Shown piece after piece: positions 1 through 27,551 of a stretch of 28,077 bases of DNA. A model generated the notes under the pieces. It was not told the DNA's origin. It did no database searches and saw only the letters and a list, made by a program, of their open reading frames with translations. The first letter of the stretch is position 1; every line of letters starts with the position of its first letter. A program made the translations under genes and the position numbers. Origin of the DNA: a virus; the UHGV virus genome UHGV-0119843. One strand, given 5' to 3'.

Positions 1-98
1 CCTAGCTATGATATGCTTGTCGAATGATATTCGTTCCTCTACATAATCCTGCGCGACCTTATGATTTCACGAATTTTTTGTTTAATGGGACCAACAGC

Positions 99-953
99 AT
101 GAAGATTATCACATTGTTTTTCCTACTTTTATTTTCATTTACTTCATCAAATGCTAAGGAGGTTCGCAATATGATAATAATTTGCTGGGGTGACTCATTA
201 ACGTATGGGGTTGGTTCACAAAGTGGCAACAGCTATCCTGATCTTCTCAGAAAAAATGGTTACGACGTGATAAAAAAGGGGTATCCCGGACAATCTTCAA
301 GCGATATAGCGATGAGGCAAGGGGGCTATTCTCCAATAATCAAAACATTACTTATATCGACTGGCGTTTATAAAGTTACATCTATGGAGCCATCAGGTGA
401 CTTCCGTAAATATAAAGAGATGAGTTTCTATGGGACATTGGAAGGAAAGCCTGTCATCCTATCTCGAGGAGTCGATGGGTCATGGTCAGTTAACTCCTCG
501 ACAGATATAAACTGTGGAAGTGGATGCCGATTTATTACAAAAGAGGGTTCAGAGGCTAAGGATGCTGTAAACATTATTTGGGTTGGCAGAAATAATAATC
601 TCGCATTTCCTCGGTTCGCCGAGAGAGATATTGATTTGATTGTAACTTCTCTTCCCAGAGGGAATAGATTCATTATCGTCGGAATAACGCCATCAAGAAC
701 TGACTCAGAAGAAAACATTAAGGCAATAAAAACTATTAATTCCAGACTAAGCATGCGTTATGGGTCAAGATTCATCGATATGTGGCGTATTCTTAGCTCC
801 GAAGGTATCAAACTTGCAGGAATTTCCCCTTCTCAAGATGACAAAGATGCGTCATCAAATGGGTTAATTCCCCCATCTTTATACAGTGATGGGATACATT
901 TTAATGACAATGGGTATAAAGCAATATCTCTGATTATAGAAAGATATATTTAA
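99..953 (+). CDS. Secreted SGNH/GDSL-family hydrolase (esterase/lipase-like), probable prophage cargo gene
   Basis: GDSL block I motif CWGDSLTYG near N-terminus, GRNNN block and C-terminal DGIHFN (Dxx H block V); signal-peptide-like MKIITLFFLLLFSFTSSNA from ATG 99; alternative ATG 171 preceded by AAGGAGG (156-162); visibly AT-rich relative to neighbouring phage genes. Confidence 0.6.
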   Translation: MKIITLFFLLLFSFTSSNAKEVRNMIIICWGDSLTYGVGSQSGNSYPDLLRKNGYDVIKKGYPGQSSSDIAMRQGGYSPIIKTLLISTGVYKVTSMEPSGDFRKYKEMSFYGTLEGKPVILSRGVDGSWSVNSSTDINCGSGCRFITKEGSEAKDAVNIIWVGRNNNLAFPRFAERDIDLIVTSLPRGNRFIIVGITPSRTDSEENIKAIKTINSRLSMRYGSRFIDMWRILSSEGIKLAGISPSQDDKDASSNGLIPPSLYSDGIHFNDNGYKAISLIIERYI

Positions 954-979: not shown

Positions 980-3193
980 TTAAAGAATGCTTGTAATTAC
1001 TCCAGATATAGAGAATTTAGTAGTTTGCCCGCCCGCGTCCTCGCCGCGGCATGTGACAGATGCCCTAGATGCTGTAGCGCCAAACAGTACATCAACACCT
1101 GTTGTGGCGTTGTACTGAGGGTAGCTATTCACAAGAGAAACAGTGTCAATTGATTGATTGGTCATGTCTGTAGACGCCCTTCCAACTCGCTTCAATATTC
1201 CTGGAACAACGCCTGATTGTCTACGGCAAACAATGTTTAAATCGAATATATATCCGTCATAACCAAAAGCAGATGGTACAAGAGCAAGGCGAAGTGCATC
1301 AGCTGCTGCTGCGCCGGCTGCCAGTTCGAAATATAAACCGGTAAACTCCATACGAGCAAAGTTTTTATCAGTTAATGTTGTATCGTACGTTCTTGATACA
1401 AAGAGAGATGACAATGAAAATGCACCATTTAATGTGATTTTGTTTTGCGCCCTTGTGCTTTGGTGGATCTTAATATCAGGACAGTTGTACAGGTCAAAGC
1501 TTGTATTTACTGCACCAGCCTTATCAAAGACGTTAACTTGAATGGAGAAGTTAGTGTTGTTGTCATGGATAGAAATTGTTGATGCTCTGTCAGCATAATC
1601 TACCTGAACGGTGGGATTAGATTGAATTATGCTGCAACCATGCACTTCAACGCCCATGACAAGTCCTGTTATGAAAACCTTAGATTGCTCAGCATATAAT
1701 CCGTGTATTTCAGTGCCACTACTATTACCTACATATATAATTCCAACCTCGACTGTACCTGAGAGCTCAGTTCCATACACCTGAAGATATGCTGCTCCCC
1801 CCATAGTATGGGCATAAACCAGAGCAGAGTCGAGGGTCAATGTATTTCCTGAAATTGCAGTTATGTATTTAGCTTCAAGAGTTCCACCCTCAATTGCAAT
1901 AACGTCAAATATTGAAAGCCCAGCTGCTGATGTTACTTGTATAGTGGTATCGCCAGCCGAAGCGGCAGCGGAAAGAGTTGTTCTTGGGCCATGAATAGAT
2001 ACAGAAATCTGTTTATCATTGGATCCTCCTATATATCCCTTAAGCTTGGCAGCATTGTTCCTTACCCTTACCGAATTTTTGGTAACGGTAGTTCCATTAG
2101 TTCTTCCTTGCGTGTGGCCATGCCAATTACAAACAAGCCCGCAGATATCTACATTAGAAAGCCTATGCCCTACAGATTTATATGACAGGTCAGCATAGTG
2201 AGCAGTAGATACAGTTCTTGAAGATGCTGAATCACCCTTGTTAGCTATATCACCATCGATAAGAAAACCTCCTACGCTTTGGTAGAAATGCTCACGGTCT
2301 TTCGTTCTATCCCTAGGGTCGATTCCAATGTGATGCATAGATATCCCGGTTGTTGTGGAGATCAGGGTTGTTAAGTCCCAACCGGCGCCGCCAAAGGAAA
2401 AGTAGCGCTTATCAACATCGAGGGTAAATGCACCAATACTATACTTCCCTGCCGGGAATGACAGACTACGTACATTTTCCTGCGCACGAGCAACGCGGTT
2501 CCCCTCATCAACTGCAGCTACGTTTTCAACATCAGTGCCGCCGAACTCGAATGATGCATAGTTCATGTCAGGGAAACATACCAGATTGGCGTATTTACCT
2601 GCGGGCAACGTCAGGCTAAAAGTATTCAGATCCTGATTGGAGGAAATAACCCATTCTGATACGTTTTTTACTCCTTTCCCGTTCACGTACGTTCTGACGT
2701 GCATTCCATCTGGTACGCCACTAAAGTCTGTTTCCAGTAACTGTGTTACAGTTTCTATAGTGTAAATACGTCGAGACAAGGCGTTAGCAACGGTAGCGTC
2801 TAATGGGTCACCAACAAGAATTGATCCTGTACTCTCTCCGAGTCTTTGCTCAAGGCGATCAGGGTCATACTTCAGCACATTAGGAAAATAGAACTGCTGC
2901 GAACCATACGCATCATAAACAGCCATAGAATGGCCTTGCACGGTAACGAATTTGGCAATCTGTCCGTTATGTACCGGATATCCAGCAGCGTTAATGATTA
3001 TTGGTTGCGAAACAGGGACGTGAGAACCGTCTTCGTTCTCTACATAAACCTGAATCTGGTTTTCAGGATTTACTGGGTCAGTGTCAATTTTTCCGATATA
3101 AATTTTGCCATTGGCTACGGCTTTAAAAGAACGCGCCATAGTGAAGAGTTGCGAAGGCATGCTTACCACAACATTGGCTGTAATGTCTGTCAT
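980..3193 (-). CDS. Tailspike protein (P22 gene 9 family) with conserved N-terminal head-binding domain and divergent receptor-binding domain
   Basis: 737-aa ORF; N-terminal ~110 aa ([11 protein letters not shown]...[31 protein letters not shown]...[15 protein letters not shown]...NVLKYDPD) matches the P22 tailspike head-binding domain from memory; remainder not P22-like; ATG at 3193 with GGAG upstream. Confidence 0.9.
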
Positions 3194-3293: not shown

Positions 3294-4172
3294 TCAGTAG
3301 TTATGTACTGAAGGAGGTAATTCTTTATTCTTAAGTCTCATCCATGCGGAAAGATTCGTTGGTCCGTCTGGCTCATTGATATCAACATCTCGTGTGTGGT
3401 TTATTAAAACGTCTCTCGCCATTCCAATAACATACGAGAACTCATGACCGTAGTCGTAGCATCTGCCGGAATAGTTCGATTGAATTTGTTTTAATGCCGG
3501 ATACAGTTCGCTGAATAATGCCTGTGAACGGTTAGCATAATCCCATAGCCATACAAGGCTGTTTGCTTCTTTTGCAGAAAGCTCGTTGGTTTTCTTCTCT
3601 TGTTTGCCAATGAACTCACCTTCAAGCACTACCCTGTGGATGTACTCTACGGCCAGCGGGATTTGTTCAATTGAAAGTTCATCAATGCTGTCAATACCAA
3701 AACGCTGATGAACCATATTGTATGCATCGTCATAGCGAAGTCCTTTCTTTCCTACCAGCATGTTTACTGCATCGCGTAGCGGTGTTCTTTCCTCAACAGT
3801 GGTTTTCTTTCCTTTTACATACTCGCCATGTTTGCGAATTGAAGGCAGAACTTCTGCTGTTACCCACTTGCGGAATTTGTGCGGGACTGAACCTTTATTG
3901 ACTGCATCGCGGCAGCGCAGAACCAATGTATACATACCTGATTCGCTCACAATGCTTAGATTCTGCTCACCACCAAGGGTGTAACTTAAAGTTACTCCCT
4001 TTTCATCGTCATCAAGTGCAGTAAGCGCCTTGCGTGAGTTAGTCAAATCTAAAGCATCACAAACATCTTTAGCTACAAACCACGGCTCACCGCACTTGTT
4101 GATGACGCGGATTTCACTGTCGCCGAATTTGAAGATGGTGAAATCGTTTTGTGCCTTTGCTATACTTTTCAT
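3294..4172 (-). CDS. ant: Antirepressor Ant (BRO-N domain N-terminus)
   Basis: 292-aa ORF directly downstream of arc on the same strand; N-terminus contains the BRO-N/AntA hallmark ...[16 protein letters not shown]...; position matches P22 immI arc-ant operon. Confidence 0.8.
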
Positions 4173-21899: not shown

Positions 21900-22361
21900 T
21901 CATCGAAGGCATTGCGTCCTGATGTATTCCTGCAGGTAGTTAACCTGCGCGGTTATCCTGTCGATTCCACTTCGGAGACGGTAATAATTGAGTTCAGCAT
22001 CTGCTGTAAGTCCTGGGCTTTCTCCATCGCCCATGCTGCTGGCTCCGGTCGTTGACTTTGCACAGGTGGCGGCGACTTGCAGGCGCTTACGCCCAGCAGA
22101 AACATCAGCACGGAGGCTTTCGATAGTCGCGTTAGCATCAGCAAGCTCCTTTGTGTATCTGGCGTCGAGTTCTGCTACATCACGTTGACGCTTCTGCATA
22201 TCAGAGATCGTCGCCATAGCCGAATCTAATGCCATAGCGTTTTCGTCGCGCTGTTTTTTGTATTCAATGGCTTTATTGTGGTAATGATTAGCTGACCAGA
22301 CAAGACCACCAGCGACACAAGCAATAAACGTTAAAATGAGCGCCCAATAACTCATCTTCAT
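21900..22361 (-). CDS. i-spanin Rz
   Basis: 153 aa (same as lambda Rz); N-terminal TM helix, ...NHYH.KAI.YK.QRDENA...ATI.DMQ.RQRDVAELDA.YTKELADA... matches lambda Rz; start overlaps endolysin stop (ATGA). Confidence 0.9.
   Translation of the reverse strand: MKMSYWALILTFIACVAGGLVWSANHYHNKAIEYKKQRDENAMALDSAMATISDMQKRQRDVAELDARYTKELADANATIESLRADVSAGRKRLQVAATCAKSTTGASSMGDGESPGLTADAELNYYRLRSGIDRITAQVNYLQEYIRTQCLR
21953..22138 (-). CDS. o-spanin Rz1 (embedded in Rz, +1 frame)
   Basis: ATG 22138 with AAGGAG 7 nt upstream; lipobox-like LLGVSAC followed by Pro-rich KSPPPVQSQRPEP, as in lambda Rz1. Confidence 0.7.
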   Translation of the reverse strand: MLTRLSKASVLMFLLGVSACKSPPPVQSQRPEPAAWAMEKAQDLQQMLNSIITVSEVESTG

Positions 22362-22972: not shown

Positions 22973-23253
22973 TAGTGCCTCAGATGATCAACCAGACGTG
23001 CAACGTTGCCTCTGACAGCCACCAGCACGGAAAGAAAAATAGTGTTCGCCACGATAATGGGCCATGAGGAATGGGGATAAATCCCACAGAGATAGGCCAA
23101 CGGAACAGCACTGTATGTAACAGTAATCAGCCAGGCTAAACGTGAAACCCAAGGACGATGCCGCGAATCACCACGACGATAAAACATCAGAGTAATAACA
23201 ACACAAGCACATAACAGCGCATTTATAGTTGCTGTCGGGTCATTTAGCTCCAC
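22972..23253 (-). CDS. Small membrane protein, putative holin/antiholin partner
   Basis: 93-aa ORF with 2-3 predicted TM segments; GTG start preceded by GGGGAGG inside the 3' end of the upstream membrane-protein gene; stop overlaps endolysin start. Confidence 0.5.
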   Translation of the reverse strand: MELNDPTATINALLCACVVITLMFYRRGDSRHRPWVSRLAWLITVTYSAVPLAYLCGIYPHSSWPIIVANTIFLSVLVAVRGNVARLVDHLRH

Positions 23254-23626
23254 CTGAACCTCCCCGGCGCGTTATGAGCGCCACCAGGGAGCCGATATCC
23301 TGATTATTCAGGAACGTCAGGATTTTAACGGCTAAAGCAGAGACGATTACGGCACCAATAGCATCCAGAGGTTTATCACTGTATCCGGTCAAGTTCGCCA
23401 GCTTGGAGCCAACCAACCCAGAGCAAAGAATCCCGGCAATATATGACACGATAAAATATGCCAGTCGGCGCGATGCACTCAGATCTGCAGCTGTTGCTAT
23501 GTAGAATACAGCCCCTGCAAATGCGCCAAATACAACGCCGTAATCAGTTCCGGTCAGCAGTCCATAAACACTGGCACCCGTCAGGGCACCACCAGCCAGC
23601 CCAGTACCGGAAATCGGATCGGACAT
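23240..23626 (-). CDS. Putative holin (multi-TM small membrane protein, first gene of lysis cassette)
   Basis: 128-aa Gly/Ala-rich hydrophobic protein with several TM segments and charged C-terminus; GAGGGGG SD before ATG 23626. Confidence 0.55.
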   Translation of the reverse strand: MSDPISGTGLAGGALTGASVYGLLTGTDYGVVFGAFAGAVFYIATAADLSASRRLAYFIVSYIAGILCSGLVGSKLANLTGYSDKPLDAIGAVIVSALAVKILTFLNNQDIGSLVALITRRGGSGGAK

Positions 23627-23670
23627 TTAGCCCCCTCTTAATTGCTGTTGGTCCTCTCAGAACGAGGGGA

Positions 23671-23699
23671 AACAAAAAAGGCCGCATTAAGGCGGCCTT
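23671..23699 (-). terminator. Rho-independent terminator between moron ORF and lysis cassette
   Basis: Minus-strand hairpin AAGGCCGC-CUUAAU-GCGGCCUU followed by UUUUUUGUU (plus A-run 23671-23679). Confidence 0.65.
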
Positions 23700-23716
23700 G
23701 GTAAGGTATAGTTTTT

Positions 23717-24313
23717 TTAAGATAAACTTTGATTGATATACTCATGACACCCAAAAATAAAGGCGTTTTGTGCATCAATAAATGACTTTTTTTCTTCCGG
23801 AGTAAAATACCCTTTTGTAAAACATACTTTTAGCGCTTTTTGAAGATCTGCCGTCAGGGTTATCAACTTACAACCTTCCTCATCAGGCCTTATTAATAGA
23901 AGTAATTTATTTTTACTTATTTCAGCGGCCTTTATTGGAACTTGAATCTCCTCAGGGAAAACACCCTTAGCCAATATATCCATATTCTTATTTCCGACCA
24001 GATGCCATTGCTCAAATGTGCTGGCCAACATAATTACGTCTGTCACATGCTCAGCGCCAGCAAAACGTATTTGTTGCGCCAATTCTTTATTAGTATTCAA
24101 GTGAGCCTGTAATGTGGCTAAGGCAAAATTTTCTTTGATTGCCCTGTATGCAACCCAACCAGTTATTCCTGCGGCAATAACGCCTGCAAGAGCAGTAATG
24201 AGTGTTTCAAAAGGAAAGGAAGAACTGATTTCAATTGGCGGTAATTTTTCTATTACCAAGGTCAACTCGCCAGTAGTTTTTTCGAAAGCGTACGGTACGT
24301 TTTGCCAAGTCAT
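23717..24313 (-). CDS. Hypothetical membrane-anchored protein (AT-rich moron between Q-like gene and lysis cassette)
   Basis: 198-aa ORF, AGGAGG 4 nt upstream of ATG 24313, one predicted TM helix (LITALAGVIAAGITGWVAY); AT-rich; no recognisable catalytic motif. Confidence 0.6.
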   Translation of the reverse strand: MTWQNVPYAFEKTTGELTLVIEKLPPIEISSSFPFETLITALAGVIAAGITGWVAYRAIKENFALATLQAHLNTNKELAQQIRFAGAEHVTDVIMLASTFEQWHLVGNKNMDILAKGVFPEEIQVPIKAAEISKNKLLLLIRPDEEGCKLITLTADLQKALKVCFTKGYFTPEEKKSFIDAQNAFIFGCHEYINQSLS

Positions 24314-24343
24314 GAAGCCTCCTGAGTTTCAGAGGAATCATAA

Positions 24344-24368
24344 CAAAAAAACCCGCTCAATGGCGGGG
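24344..24368 (-). terminator. Intrinsic terminator just downstream of Q-like gene (tR'-like)
   Basis: Minus-strand 5-bp GC stem CCCGC-CAUUGA-GCGGG followed by UUUUUUU (plus A-run 24345-24351); short stem, moderate confidence. Confidence 0.45.
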
Positions 24369-24419
24369 TCTTAATGTTGTGTTGCTCAGTTCGCTTTAAC
24401 GTCCCGAGCCTACCACAAT

Positions 24420-24998
24420 TTAAGCACTTTCTTGCTCACTCTGCAACTTAAATCTGTCGCTATTTGTGCCGAATGCGTCACAAACTGGAGCGTACAGGAT
24501 CGATTCTGCAAGACTTAGCCAAGTGTCAATGCGTCGACGACAGGTGATCAGCGGCCAGTCAGGATGTTTAGCCTGCAGTTCATTGGCCATCTGCAACTTG
24601 CTCTTACGAAGACGATACCGGTCAACAATCACGCTATAGAGCGATCGGTAGTCATCATTCATCAGTACTGAAGCAATGACACCGTCCACTAACAACCCTT
24701 CTTCATCTGAACAGAACGCCAGGCCGCTTTTATTTTTGCTGTTGAGAATTTCACGCAGGTACGCTTCAAGTTCAGGCTTGGTGATACCCGCTATCTTCAT
24801 CCGGCGTAGCGCTTCATTGATAGCTGTCTTGGTGATTTTCCCGGATGCCAGAAGCTGGTTAAACATGTTTCCACCACTACCACCGCCGATATAAGACCAG
24901 CGGCCCCACATGCGCAACTTGCCTTGTATCCAGATACTTTCCAGAGTACGAAGGCGAACCATTTCACCTGATTTGCCAACTTCAGAAGGATTAATCAT
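24420..24998 (-). CDS. Putative late-gene antiterminator (Q-like, by position)
   Basis: 192-aa ORF immediately upstream of a terminator and the lysis cassette and downstream of a DUF968-like gene (as quuQ/ydfU in E. coli Qin); no sequence motif confirmed. Confidence 0.4.
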   Translation of the reverse strand: MINPSEVGKSGEMVRLRTLESIWIQGKLRMWGRWSYIGGGSGGNMFNQLLASGKITKTAINEALRRMKIAGITKPELEAYLREILNSKNKSGLAFCSDEEGLLVDGVIASVLMNDDYRSLYSVIVDRYRLRKSKLQMANELQAKHPDWPLITCRRRIDTWLSLAESILYAPVCDAFGTNSDRFKLQSEQESA

Positions 24999-26838: not shown

Positions 26839-27228
26839 TCAGGCGGCTGCACCCGCCGGTTTCTCATACTTACTGATAGTGATCTCGACCTTCCCTTTCG
26901 GGATAACCGGTCCCCACTCAACCAGCATTCTTTTCACCTGACTGTCGTCCTCCCACACACCCGCGTGGGTCAGGGCGTCAAACAGCGCCTTGTTATAGTT
27001 GTCCAGATCGCGGATCCGGTTATCCGGTGGAAACAACACGATCTCCACTGAAGCAGGTGCCGACGTTGGTTTTGGCAGACGACGTAACTGCTCAACTATT
27101 GCTGCACACGCCGCGCTCTGGAATTTTCGCCCCGCCGCGCTTATCAGGCTCTTACCTGCAAACGCCCCTTTGTTGGGGTGTCGCCAGTACGTGTTCACGC
27201 TGGGCGGAAAAGGCAGGATCAGCTTCAT
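26839..27228 (-). CDS. rusA: Holliday junction resolvase RusA
   Basis: 129-aa ORF; ...LPFPPSVNTYWRH...RDLDNYNKALFDALTHAGVWEDDSQV... matches RusA conserved motifs (DLDN, FDAL); start overlaps upstream stop (ATGA). Confidence 0.9.
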   Translation of the reverse strand: MKLILPFPPSVNTYWRHPNKGAFAGKSLISAAGRKFQSAACAAIVEQLRRLPKPTSAPASVEIVLFPPDNRIRDLDNYNKALFDALTHAGVWEDDSQVKRMLVEWGPVIPKGKVEITISKYEKPAGAAA

Positions 27229-27551
27229 GCTTTCAGGCCTCTCTCATGTAACCAGTGGGTTGCACGCAGCCTTGCGTTTTCCTCACCGGCAAGCAGTGAG
27301 CGGATAATCCCGACCGCCTCGCTGTCGTCGTCCTTCACCGCGGTATGAAGCGTTATCCCCCGGGCCACGCCACGCTTTATCGTGATGACGCCTTTTTTCT
27401 CCAGTGCGCGAAGATGCTCCACCGCTGCATTCACCGAACGGTATCCCAGCATGGTTGCCACCTCCTGATTGGTTGGCGGGAAGCCACGTTCTTTCTGATA
27501 AGAAATCAGCATATCCAGCACCTGCTGCTGGCATTGAGTTAACGTCGTCAT
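27225..27551 (-). CDS. LexA N-terminal DNA-binding-domain-like protein lacking peptidase domain
   Basis: 108 aa; MTTLTQCQQQVLDMLISYQKERGFPPTNQEVATMLGYRSVNAAVEHLRALEKKGVI.I..G.ARGI.L aligns by eye with the LexA winged-helix N-terminus (MKALTARQQEVFDLI...[46 protein letters not shown]); no S24 Ser/Lys motifs. Confidence 0.7.
   Translation of the reverse strand: MTTLTQCQQQVLDMLISYQKERGFPPTNQEVATMLGYRSVNAAVEHLRALEKKGVITIKRGVARGITLHTAVKDDDSEAVGIIRSLLAGEENARLRATHWLHERGLKA

Follow-up and report, generated by a model that had tools for sequence, protein, structure and literature searches.

ORF198 is a 198-residue open reading frame (ORF) lying between the Q-like antiterminator gene and the lysis genes of the viral genome UHGV-0119843, which we analyzed as one stretch of 28,077 nucleotides (the window, whose numbering is used throughout). 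All elements of the locus are on the minus strand (Table 1). ORF198 is accessory cargo, a horizontally acquired, moron-type gene of a lambdoid (here P22-like) prophage, and our central proposal, which we hold to be close to evenly balanced if slightly short of it, is that it may be insulated from the late operon in both directions, being on in the lysogen and silenced in late transcripts. According to this proposal, sigma-70 polymerase in the lysogen would transcribe ORF198 from its own extended -10 element, which is fused to the T-tract of the late terminator tR′, with a start near position 24330. This transcript would lack the 5′ arm of a leader hairpin, leaving it open and translated from the strong AGGAGG, and the terminator of the cargo would keep polymerase from running on into the lethal lysis genes. 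In the lytic phase, both terminators would be passed by Q-modified polymerase coming from the late promoter PR′; the long transcripts would carry the full leader, in which the Shine-Dalgarno (SD) sequence and AUG would be buried, and the heavily transcribed late operon would yield little of the protein. We infer promoter activity, translational silencing, and membrane topology from the sequence. An earlier reading of the letters alone (the first-pass annotation) had described the ORF, its AGGAGG, its single transmembrane (TM) helix, and its low GC content between a Q-like gene and a holin, and we found all of these elements.

The first-pass annotation had also held that there is no room for a promoter between the upstream terminator and the ribosome-binding site. 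This is doubtful for the window and for most of its relatives, because the sequence TGtTATGAT, a candidate extended -10 element, fits into that space directly against the T-tract; it does hold for two family members (L017 and L028), in which the SD abuts the T-tract. An extended -10 sigma-70 promoter needs no -35 element. Among 14 members picked by protein similarity alone, TGnTAT(G/C/T)AT was present at the equivalent place in 10, including proteins that are only ∼24 to 35% identical to ORF198, and the bases 3′ of the motif diverge among members. Columns T1, G2, T4, A5, T6, A8, and T9 are invariant; variation is confined to the "n" of TGn and to the fourth position of the hexamer. An extended -10 promoter would be expected to vary in just this way, at its least important positions, which makes the motif a candidate for such a promoter. 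The best argument comes from G2 and T9, which are invariant yet paired in only 4 to 5 of 10 leaders, pointing to a promoter constraint on top of the hairpin. Two further members (L013 and L035) lack the exact motif; they have another -10-like hexamer in or beside the 5′ arm and a hairpin over SD and AUG, which in L035 is weak (-9 kcal/mol, z about -1). Two other origins of the motif were rejected: DUF1133 modules with other cargo do not have it, which rules it out as part of the Q module, and a small upstream ORF is ruled out because the ATGATG of the motif lacks an SD and lies out of frame.

The leader of ORF198 folds into a hairpin (-15.8 kcal/mol, z -4.6) that takes in both the SD and the start codon, and an equivalent hairpin was found in 10/10 leaders when each was folded singly, with energies from -11 to -18.5 kcal/mol. 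RNAalifold on a MAFFT alignment missed it, as the stem registers shift between leaders, and we therefore used a stated structure of 14 pairs alongside the single folds. Counted on that structure in the 10 leaders, paired cells made up 78.6% compared with 40 to 55% when partners were slid, the covariation score was 0.294 compared with 0.08 to 0.14 in controls and was attained by no shuffle, and five pairs changed on both sides; these pair counts are inflated, since the structure was derived from the same, descent-related sequences. A pattern scan of IMG/VR returned 94 matches, 46 of them encoding family members, with 20 distinct leaders that all follow a terminator hairpin. The AUG was fully paired in 13 of the 16 of these that we folded, and they include compensatory variants (GCCUC/GGAGGC, CCCCC/GGGGG, and CACUCC/GGAGUG); having been chosen with the motif itself, they bear on the hairpin only. 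Rfam gave only subthreshold matches to attenuator leaders, caused by the terminators. The anti-SD sequence of every leader falls in the 5 to 7 nt that separate the -10 from the predicted start, and a transcript from the own promoter would therefore be without the whole 5′ arm. Transcripts from the late promoter, in which the hairpin occludes SD and AUG, are predicted to be poorly translated. This is the opposite of late expression as known for Shiga toxin (Stx) genes; the location itself is as the first-pass annotation had described.

ORF198 had further been described as bracketed by two intrinsic terminators. Two same-strand terminators are indeed present, but the bracket is not symmetrical: the Q module includes the upstream one, and only the downstream one goes with the cargo. 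We located the boundary of the Q module by aligning four diverged DUF1133-Q prophages with four different cargos. The end of Q, the PR′-like promoter, and a leader of ∼65 nt are strongly conserved among them, and the leader, which folds into a 5′ hairpin and the terminator hairpin, is nearly invariant, its conservation exceeding that of the 3′ end of the Q reading frame. The tR′-like terminator (a stem of 5 bp, all G-C, then seven T) is kept across all four cargos with changes mostly in the loop, and homology stops right after the T-tract. Conserved whatever the cargo and marking the point where homology breaks, this terminator belongs to the Q module and not to the moron. The PR′-like promoter overlaps the stop codon of Q and is a consensus match only, with a -35 that fits at 3/6 positions and no call by the scan; the leader that follows it is a candidate for the qut/pause region of the little-studied DUF1133 family of Q proteins.

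On the other side of ORF198, homology among holin modules runs from TTCCCCTC on (23671 downward), after the cargo terminator. Each forward-strand cargo has a different terminator 5′ of the holin module, and none is present there when the cargo runs on the opposite strand; differing per cargo and lying outside the conserved holin module, this terminator belongs, at the sequence level, to the cargo. In the window, it folds at -14.3 kcal/mol (z -3.7), and terminators follow most members of the family. The region does not have an excess of terminator-like sites (4 compared with 2.3 ± 1.8 in shuffles), but the two flanking ORF198 are not there by chance, because both are kept at equivalent positions in related loci. 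A cargo terminator would be useful only against polymerase that is unmodified by Q, which argues for Q-independent transcription of ORF198. As a supporting parallel, two other forward-strand cargos of the same slot have a promoter-like site and their own terminator, and one of them has an SD-occluding hairpin.

Across the family, the gene comes first behind a Q antiterminator gene and the associated terminator in all 13 members whose upstream gene could be resolved. This position spans four Q families, namely DUF1133 (the window, L017, and L026), PF06530 (L031 and L033), PF06323 (L013, L020, L028, and L035), and PF03589 (L007 and L024), and it is kept even in slots occupied by several genes. 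A tblastn search with ORF198 of 50,697 phage genomes gave no match; distant relatives used as queries identified one cultured phage with a member, Escherichia phage LLS, where it directly follows the annotated Q. The LLS member (PQ299149, L030 3469–4103) seems to have been wrongly split in the annotation into two overlapping ORFs, genes 49/50: the frame from MWQGIPF (∼locus position 3498) is continuous, with TGTTATGAT and a terminator between it and the Q gene immediately upstream. In Enterobacter hormaechei, a prophage remnant (L009–L011, 6001–6597) has an intact ORF198 homolog between a peptidase M3 gene and dinI. It is without Q and endolysin, and its upstream terminator stem is degraded; it still has a small holin, the TGCTATGAT motif, and, at -18.5 kcal/mol, the strongest of the leader hairpins. 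We count the persistence of ORF, motif, and hairpin in a remnant without Q in favor of expression in the lysogen.

Several points weigh against an own promoter and two-way insulation. The candidate promoter is a consensus match without a -35, and the conservation of TATGAT could stem largely from the pairing of these bases with the start codon. L017 and L028 have neither motif nor hairpin and, with the SD directly after the T-tract, must rely on read-through or antitermination. The strict position after Q could mean that the gene needs transcription from PR′. To these are added the inflation of the pair counts and the silence of the IMG/VR leaders about the promoter. In an alternative that we consider possible but rather doubtful, ORF198 would have no promoter of its own and would, like stx in Stx phages, be transcribed from the late promoter only, through leakage at tR′ in the lysogen and antitermination by Q after induction. 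The 13/13 contexts over four Q families suggest such PR′ dependence, the two members without any promoter-like motif fit it, and the covariation of the hairpin shows that transcripts starting upstream matter. The hairpin would then merely tune or condition translation, whether as a limit on a potentially toxic membrane protein or in response to temperature or a factor, and the protein would act late, which we likewise regard as a tentative option with the doubt prevailing. What the late-promoter alternative has to face is that the very transcripts it relies on are predicted to be translated very poorly, given a hairpin of -11 to -18.5 kcal/mol over SD and AUG; that pairing does not account for the TG or the last T of the motif, all of them invariant; that the cargo terminator would serve no purpose were the gene transcribed by Q-modified polymerase alone; and that the ORF is kept in the remnant without Q.

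We consider it improbable that ORF198 is a lysis accessory, an antiholin-like or lysis inhibition-like protein that times the holin and is expressed with the lysis cassette. Its gene is located inside the late operon and, as the gene for an inner-membrane protein, directly 5′ of the holin in the window, L007, L010, L013, L020, and L023. However, a holin is directly 3′ in only about half of the contexts and the holins nearby represent five or more unrelated Pfam families, whereas in 7/13 contexts the holin is separated from the member by other genes (methylases, a theta-like protein, and opposite-strand ORFs). Such variable downstream genes speak against a specific partnership with a holin and in favor of a link to the Q/tR′ junction. 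Furthermore, most prophages with the identical holin module are without ORF198, a terminator stands between ORF198 and the holin, no holin or antiholin profile in Pfam matches the protein, and the ORF is kept in the remnant without endolysin.

The distribution of the module is that of an accessory element. The 851-bp stretch from the end of Q through the ORF to the holin start is present in 32/5426 complete Escherichia coli genomes at 99.6 to 99.9% identity (99.9% in strains EC93 and D10), and a further 178/5426 match just one or both flanks, bringing the genomes with shared flanks to 210. In strain EC93, the same module is inside a lambda-type, Qin-like prophage and not a P22-like one, indicating that it moves as a mosaic block. 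The same slot elsewhere holds unrelated genes of 249 aa (L002), 85 aa (L003), and 261 aa (L004) or a gene disrupted by an insertion sequence (L006). A core gene of all P22-like phages, which the first-pass annotation had considered it might prove to be, ORF198 is therefore not. Base composition also deviates, with 37 to 41% GC over the ORF stretch compared with ∼48 to 50% on either side (38.4% for ORF198 itself and 32.7% at third codon positions), in agreement with the earlier description of foreign cargo in the Q-to-lysis slot. Variable presence among close relatives, an own terminator at the sequence level, and deviating base composition are all features of a moron. The slot of L005 (strain MRSN346638) contains an opposite-strand ORF that is also 198 aa long; this candidate was set aside, as it is unrelated to ORF198. 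Both the 249-aa cargo of L002 and the 261-aa cargo of L004 have a promoter-like site between tR′ and the start and a private terminator before the holin leader (L002, 4098–4185 and 5003–5021; L004, 2135–2163 and 3001–3022), and the L002 leader folds into a long SD-occluding hairpin of -19 kcal/mol.

ORF198 is not an orphan but belongs to PHROG 18859, an uncharacterized family without an assigned function, which it matches over its full length (residues 1–198 on profile positions 1–198, E 7e-91), as do 34/34 aligned relatives. A word-indexed search found close relatives only, in E. coli and in Enterobacter (70–75% identity), and an exhaustive profile search of 1.84 billion representatives found 36 clusters at 50% identity, nearly all of ∼190 to 230 aa; one genome scan for further loci gave a single locus only. 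Between the E. coli and Enterobacter copies, synonymous sites are saturated, nonsynonymous divergence (dN) is ∼0.15, and the ratio to synonymous divergence (dN/dS) is 0.07 to 0.13, which identifies ORF198 as a real gene under purifying selection. That it is a chance open frame or decaying pseudogene with unrelated flanking signals, which the lack of Pfam, NCBIfam, and PADLOC matches and a frameshifted allele in some E. coli might suggest, is refuted by this substitution pattern and made extremely improbable also by full-length homologs of ∼200 aa throughout the 36 clusters, by conservation of the ribosome-binding site, hairpin, and terminator, and by a confident model of the C-terminal domain. 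The frameshifted allele, P0002 (224 aa, altered from about residue 175), is found on 31 contigs, for example in E. coli UPEC-245U (H58), and indicates that the gene is decaying in part of the E. coli population.

ORF198 is predicted to be a single-pass inner-membrane protein with its N terminus out and its C terminus in, carrying a cytoplasmic four-helix bundle. It has one TM helix, at residues ∼37 to 57. Around this helix in the 34 members, the 15 residues before it total 33 K/R and 77 D/E and the 15 residues after it 101 K/R and 29 D/E; this bias is the basis for placing the acidic tail of ∼36 aa in the periplasm and the bundle (residues 58–198) in the cytoplasm. AlphaFold2 on the 34-sequence alignment gave a mean predicted local distance difference test (pLDDT) score of 82 and was used in preference to a model from a shallow 10-sequence alignment (pLDDT 41), which was discarded. 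The N-terminal 31 residues are disordered or uncertain in the model, the helix at residues 35 to 106 includes the TM segment, and three more helices complete the bundle. Conservation in the family is concentrated in the N terminus (M-x-W-x-G-x-P-F, P25, and F33), the TM helix, and the first cytoplasmic turns (Q69 and R83), and the C-terminal part is variable. The earlier statement that the protein has no recognizable catalytic motif agrees with our profile searches of Pfam, NCBIfam, and PADLOC, which assigned ORF198 to no family; PADLOC on the 34 relatives gave just scattered subthreshold matches. A BFVD search of the model with Foldseek returned nothing at E < 0.001, sequence searches of the Protein Data Bank returned only noise, and literature searches by protein accession and by PHROG number found nothing. 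Remote homology and structure prediction, which the first-pass annotation had proposed as a check, yielded the PHROG family and the four-helix fold but not a function.

The gene is spread as an accessory element, is foreign in composition, has been retained in a decayed prophage, and appears to avoid late expression; these features, together with a conserved short periplasmic tail and TM helix followed by a variable cytoplasmic bundle, lead us to guess that the protein may benefit the lysogen. It might protect it from the membrane, for instance through superinfection exclusion or another anti-phage activity, a suggestion we make with more doubt than confidence; against it counts that the PADLOC, Pfam, NCBIfam, and fold searches lend it no support. 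More speculatively worded, and in our estimate also rather unlikely, PHROG 18859 could be a new class of lysogen-expressed inner-membrane effectors (of superinfection exclusion, abortive infection, or envelope protection) that a 36-nt promoter-hairpin device would render translatable solely from their own promoter and silent in Q-driven late transcripts. Such effectors might have come to occupy the head of the late operon in many lambdoid phages of enterobacteria, with a private terminator shielding the lysis genes, an idea to which we attach similar reservations. P22 SieA, T4 Imm, and HK97 gp15 are prophage inner-membrane superinfection-exclusion proteins. ORF198 resembles them as a small inner-membrane protein from an accessory gene but differs in TM count and domain make-up, and we found no sequence or profile similarity to them. 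Its resemblance to sensor bundles of the 4HB_MCP, TorS, and NarX type is at the level of a generic fold only (4–13% identity), and unlike these, it has a bundle predicted to be cytoplasmic rather than periplasmic, a single TM helix, and no output domain.

The kind of element is already known, a moron in the Q-to-lysis slot, and its PHROG family exists, although uncharacterized. We found no published description of the first-after-Q rule over four Q families, of the promoter-hairpin leader fused to tR′, or of the two-way insulation. The stx genes of Stx phages are cotranscribed with the late genes (PMC8065619). ORF198 is like such cargo in lying 3′ of Q and its terminator and 5′ of the holin, in varying among related phages, and in its foreign composition. 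It is unlike stx in encoding a predicted membrane-anchored four-helix bundle rather than a secreted toxin, in having a leader predicted to block translation of the late transcript, and in the candidate promoter fused to the tR′ T-tract. A moron in the sense of Hendrix and Juhala is a gene that sits within a phage operon but is expressed independently of it, having a promoter and a terminator to itself (as quoted in PMC2629481). Variable presence, atypical composition, and an own terminator correspond to this usage, and the candidate promoter would do so if it is active, whereas a left boundary shared with the operon's own terminator and the added hairpin over the ribosome-binding site do not. 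The closest regulatory parallel is provided by the T4 genes e, soc, 49, and I-TevI, whose read-through transcripts hide the SD and AUG and in which a promoter in the DNA of the 5′ strand yields well-translated transcripts (PMC3014915). As in T4 gene e, the helix predicted for ORF198 covers SD and AUG, and its 5′ arm overlaps a promoter-like -10, so that the two classes of transcript would not be equally translatable. Unlike in T4, the candidate is a sigma-70 extended -10 and not a T4 late promoter, the host phage is a temperate lambdoid one, and the predicted timing is reversed, on in the lysogen and off late.

Because the Q-to-lysis slot carries Shiga toxin and other conversion genes, how cargo in it is expressed is medically relevant. 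If true, the proposed insulation would explain how a membrane protein can head the most strongly transcribed and most dangerous operon of the phage, with neither overproduction during lysis nor lysis genes switched on in the lysogen. It would also provide a signature for lysogen-expressed cargo, a terminator T-tract followed by TGnTATnAT and then an anti-SD. Temperate phages would in that case have their own version of the T4 gene e switch, and tolerance of cargo at this hotspot would follow a general rule. Should the promoter prove not to be real, the locus would be one more late-operon moron. PHROG 18859 is a fairly widespread membrane-protein family and a candidate for phage-exclusion screens.

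Table 1. Elements of the ORF198 locus in window coordinates
Feature	Coordinates	Strand	Basis and details
Q-like late antiterminator gene, 192 aa, DUF1133/Phage_antitermQ	24420..24998	-	PF06576 E 3e-92; PF06530 E 2e-8, above cut-off
PR′-like promoter (putative)	24418..24446	-	-35 TTGCAG 24446–24441, 17-nt spacer, TGc and -10 TTAAAT 24426–24418
Late-transcript leader ending in tR′-like intrinsic terminator	24345..24411	-	Terminator scan; stem 24367–24352, T7 24351–24345
TGtTATGAT, candidate extended -10	24337..24345	-	Abuts T-tract; predicted own-transcript start as given in the text
Leader hairpin (predicted)	24309..24344	-	24344–24338 pairs with 24315–24309 (start codon); CCUCU 24335–24331 pairs with SD 24322–24318
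Shine-Dalgarno AGGAGG	24318..24323	-	Read from sequence; 4 nt 5′ of ATG
ORF198	23717..24313	-	198 aa; ORF list and PHROG 18859 match
Cargo intrinsic terminator	23672..23699	-	Scan; stem 23699–23678 (8 pairs, 6 G-C), then T-run
Holin-module leader	23627..23671	-	CCCCTCgTTCTGAGAGG inverted repeat and SD AAGAGGGGG; kept in six Phage_holin_8 modules regardless of cargo
First holin gene, Phage_holin_8; start of lysis cassette	23240..23626	-	PF16931 E 1e-34

The surroundings of the locus are as the first-pass annotation had sketched them. DUF1133 proteins such as the one upstream of ORF198 were assigned as Q antiterminators with HHpred in a survey of Stx phages (PMC8136144). Profile matches identify the lysis genes 3′ of ORF198 as Phage_holin_8, Phage_holin_3_7, a GH19 endolysin, and Rz, and the remainder of the window bears out a P22-like setting, with gp3, the large terminase, and a tailspike with the P22 head-binding domain.

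The holin leader has features of its own. An inverted repeat, CCCCTCnTTCTGAGAGG, lies just 5′ of the SD in 6/6 compared Phage_holin_8 modules, and the CCCCTC in this leader is able to pair with GAGAGG or with the SD, which suggests that the holin may be under translational control by the leader inverted repeat. Inside the Rz gene (21900–22361, minus strand), a 63-aa ORF in another frame (21953–22144, minus strand) has the lipobox LLGVSAC and a proline-rich tail and looks like the Rz1 o-spanin partner. At the end of the prophage, a 309-aa GDSL-like lipase/acylhydrolase ORF (24–953, plus strand) is convergent with the adjoining P22-type tailspike gene (980–3193, minus strand) and may be a conversion gene that modifies the O-antigen or another part of the surface. 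Finally, a 108-aa ORF (27225–27551, minus strand), flanked by a Dam-like methylase and RusA in the nin-like region, has the DNA-binding domain of LexA only, without the peptidase domain.

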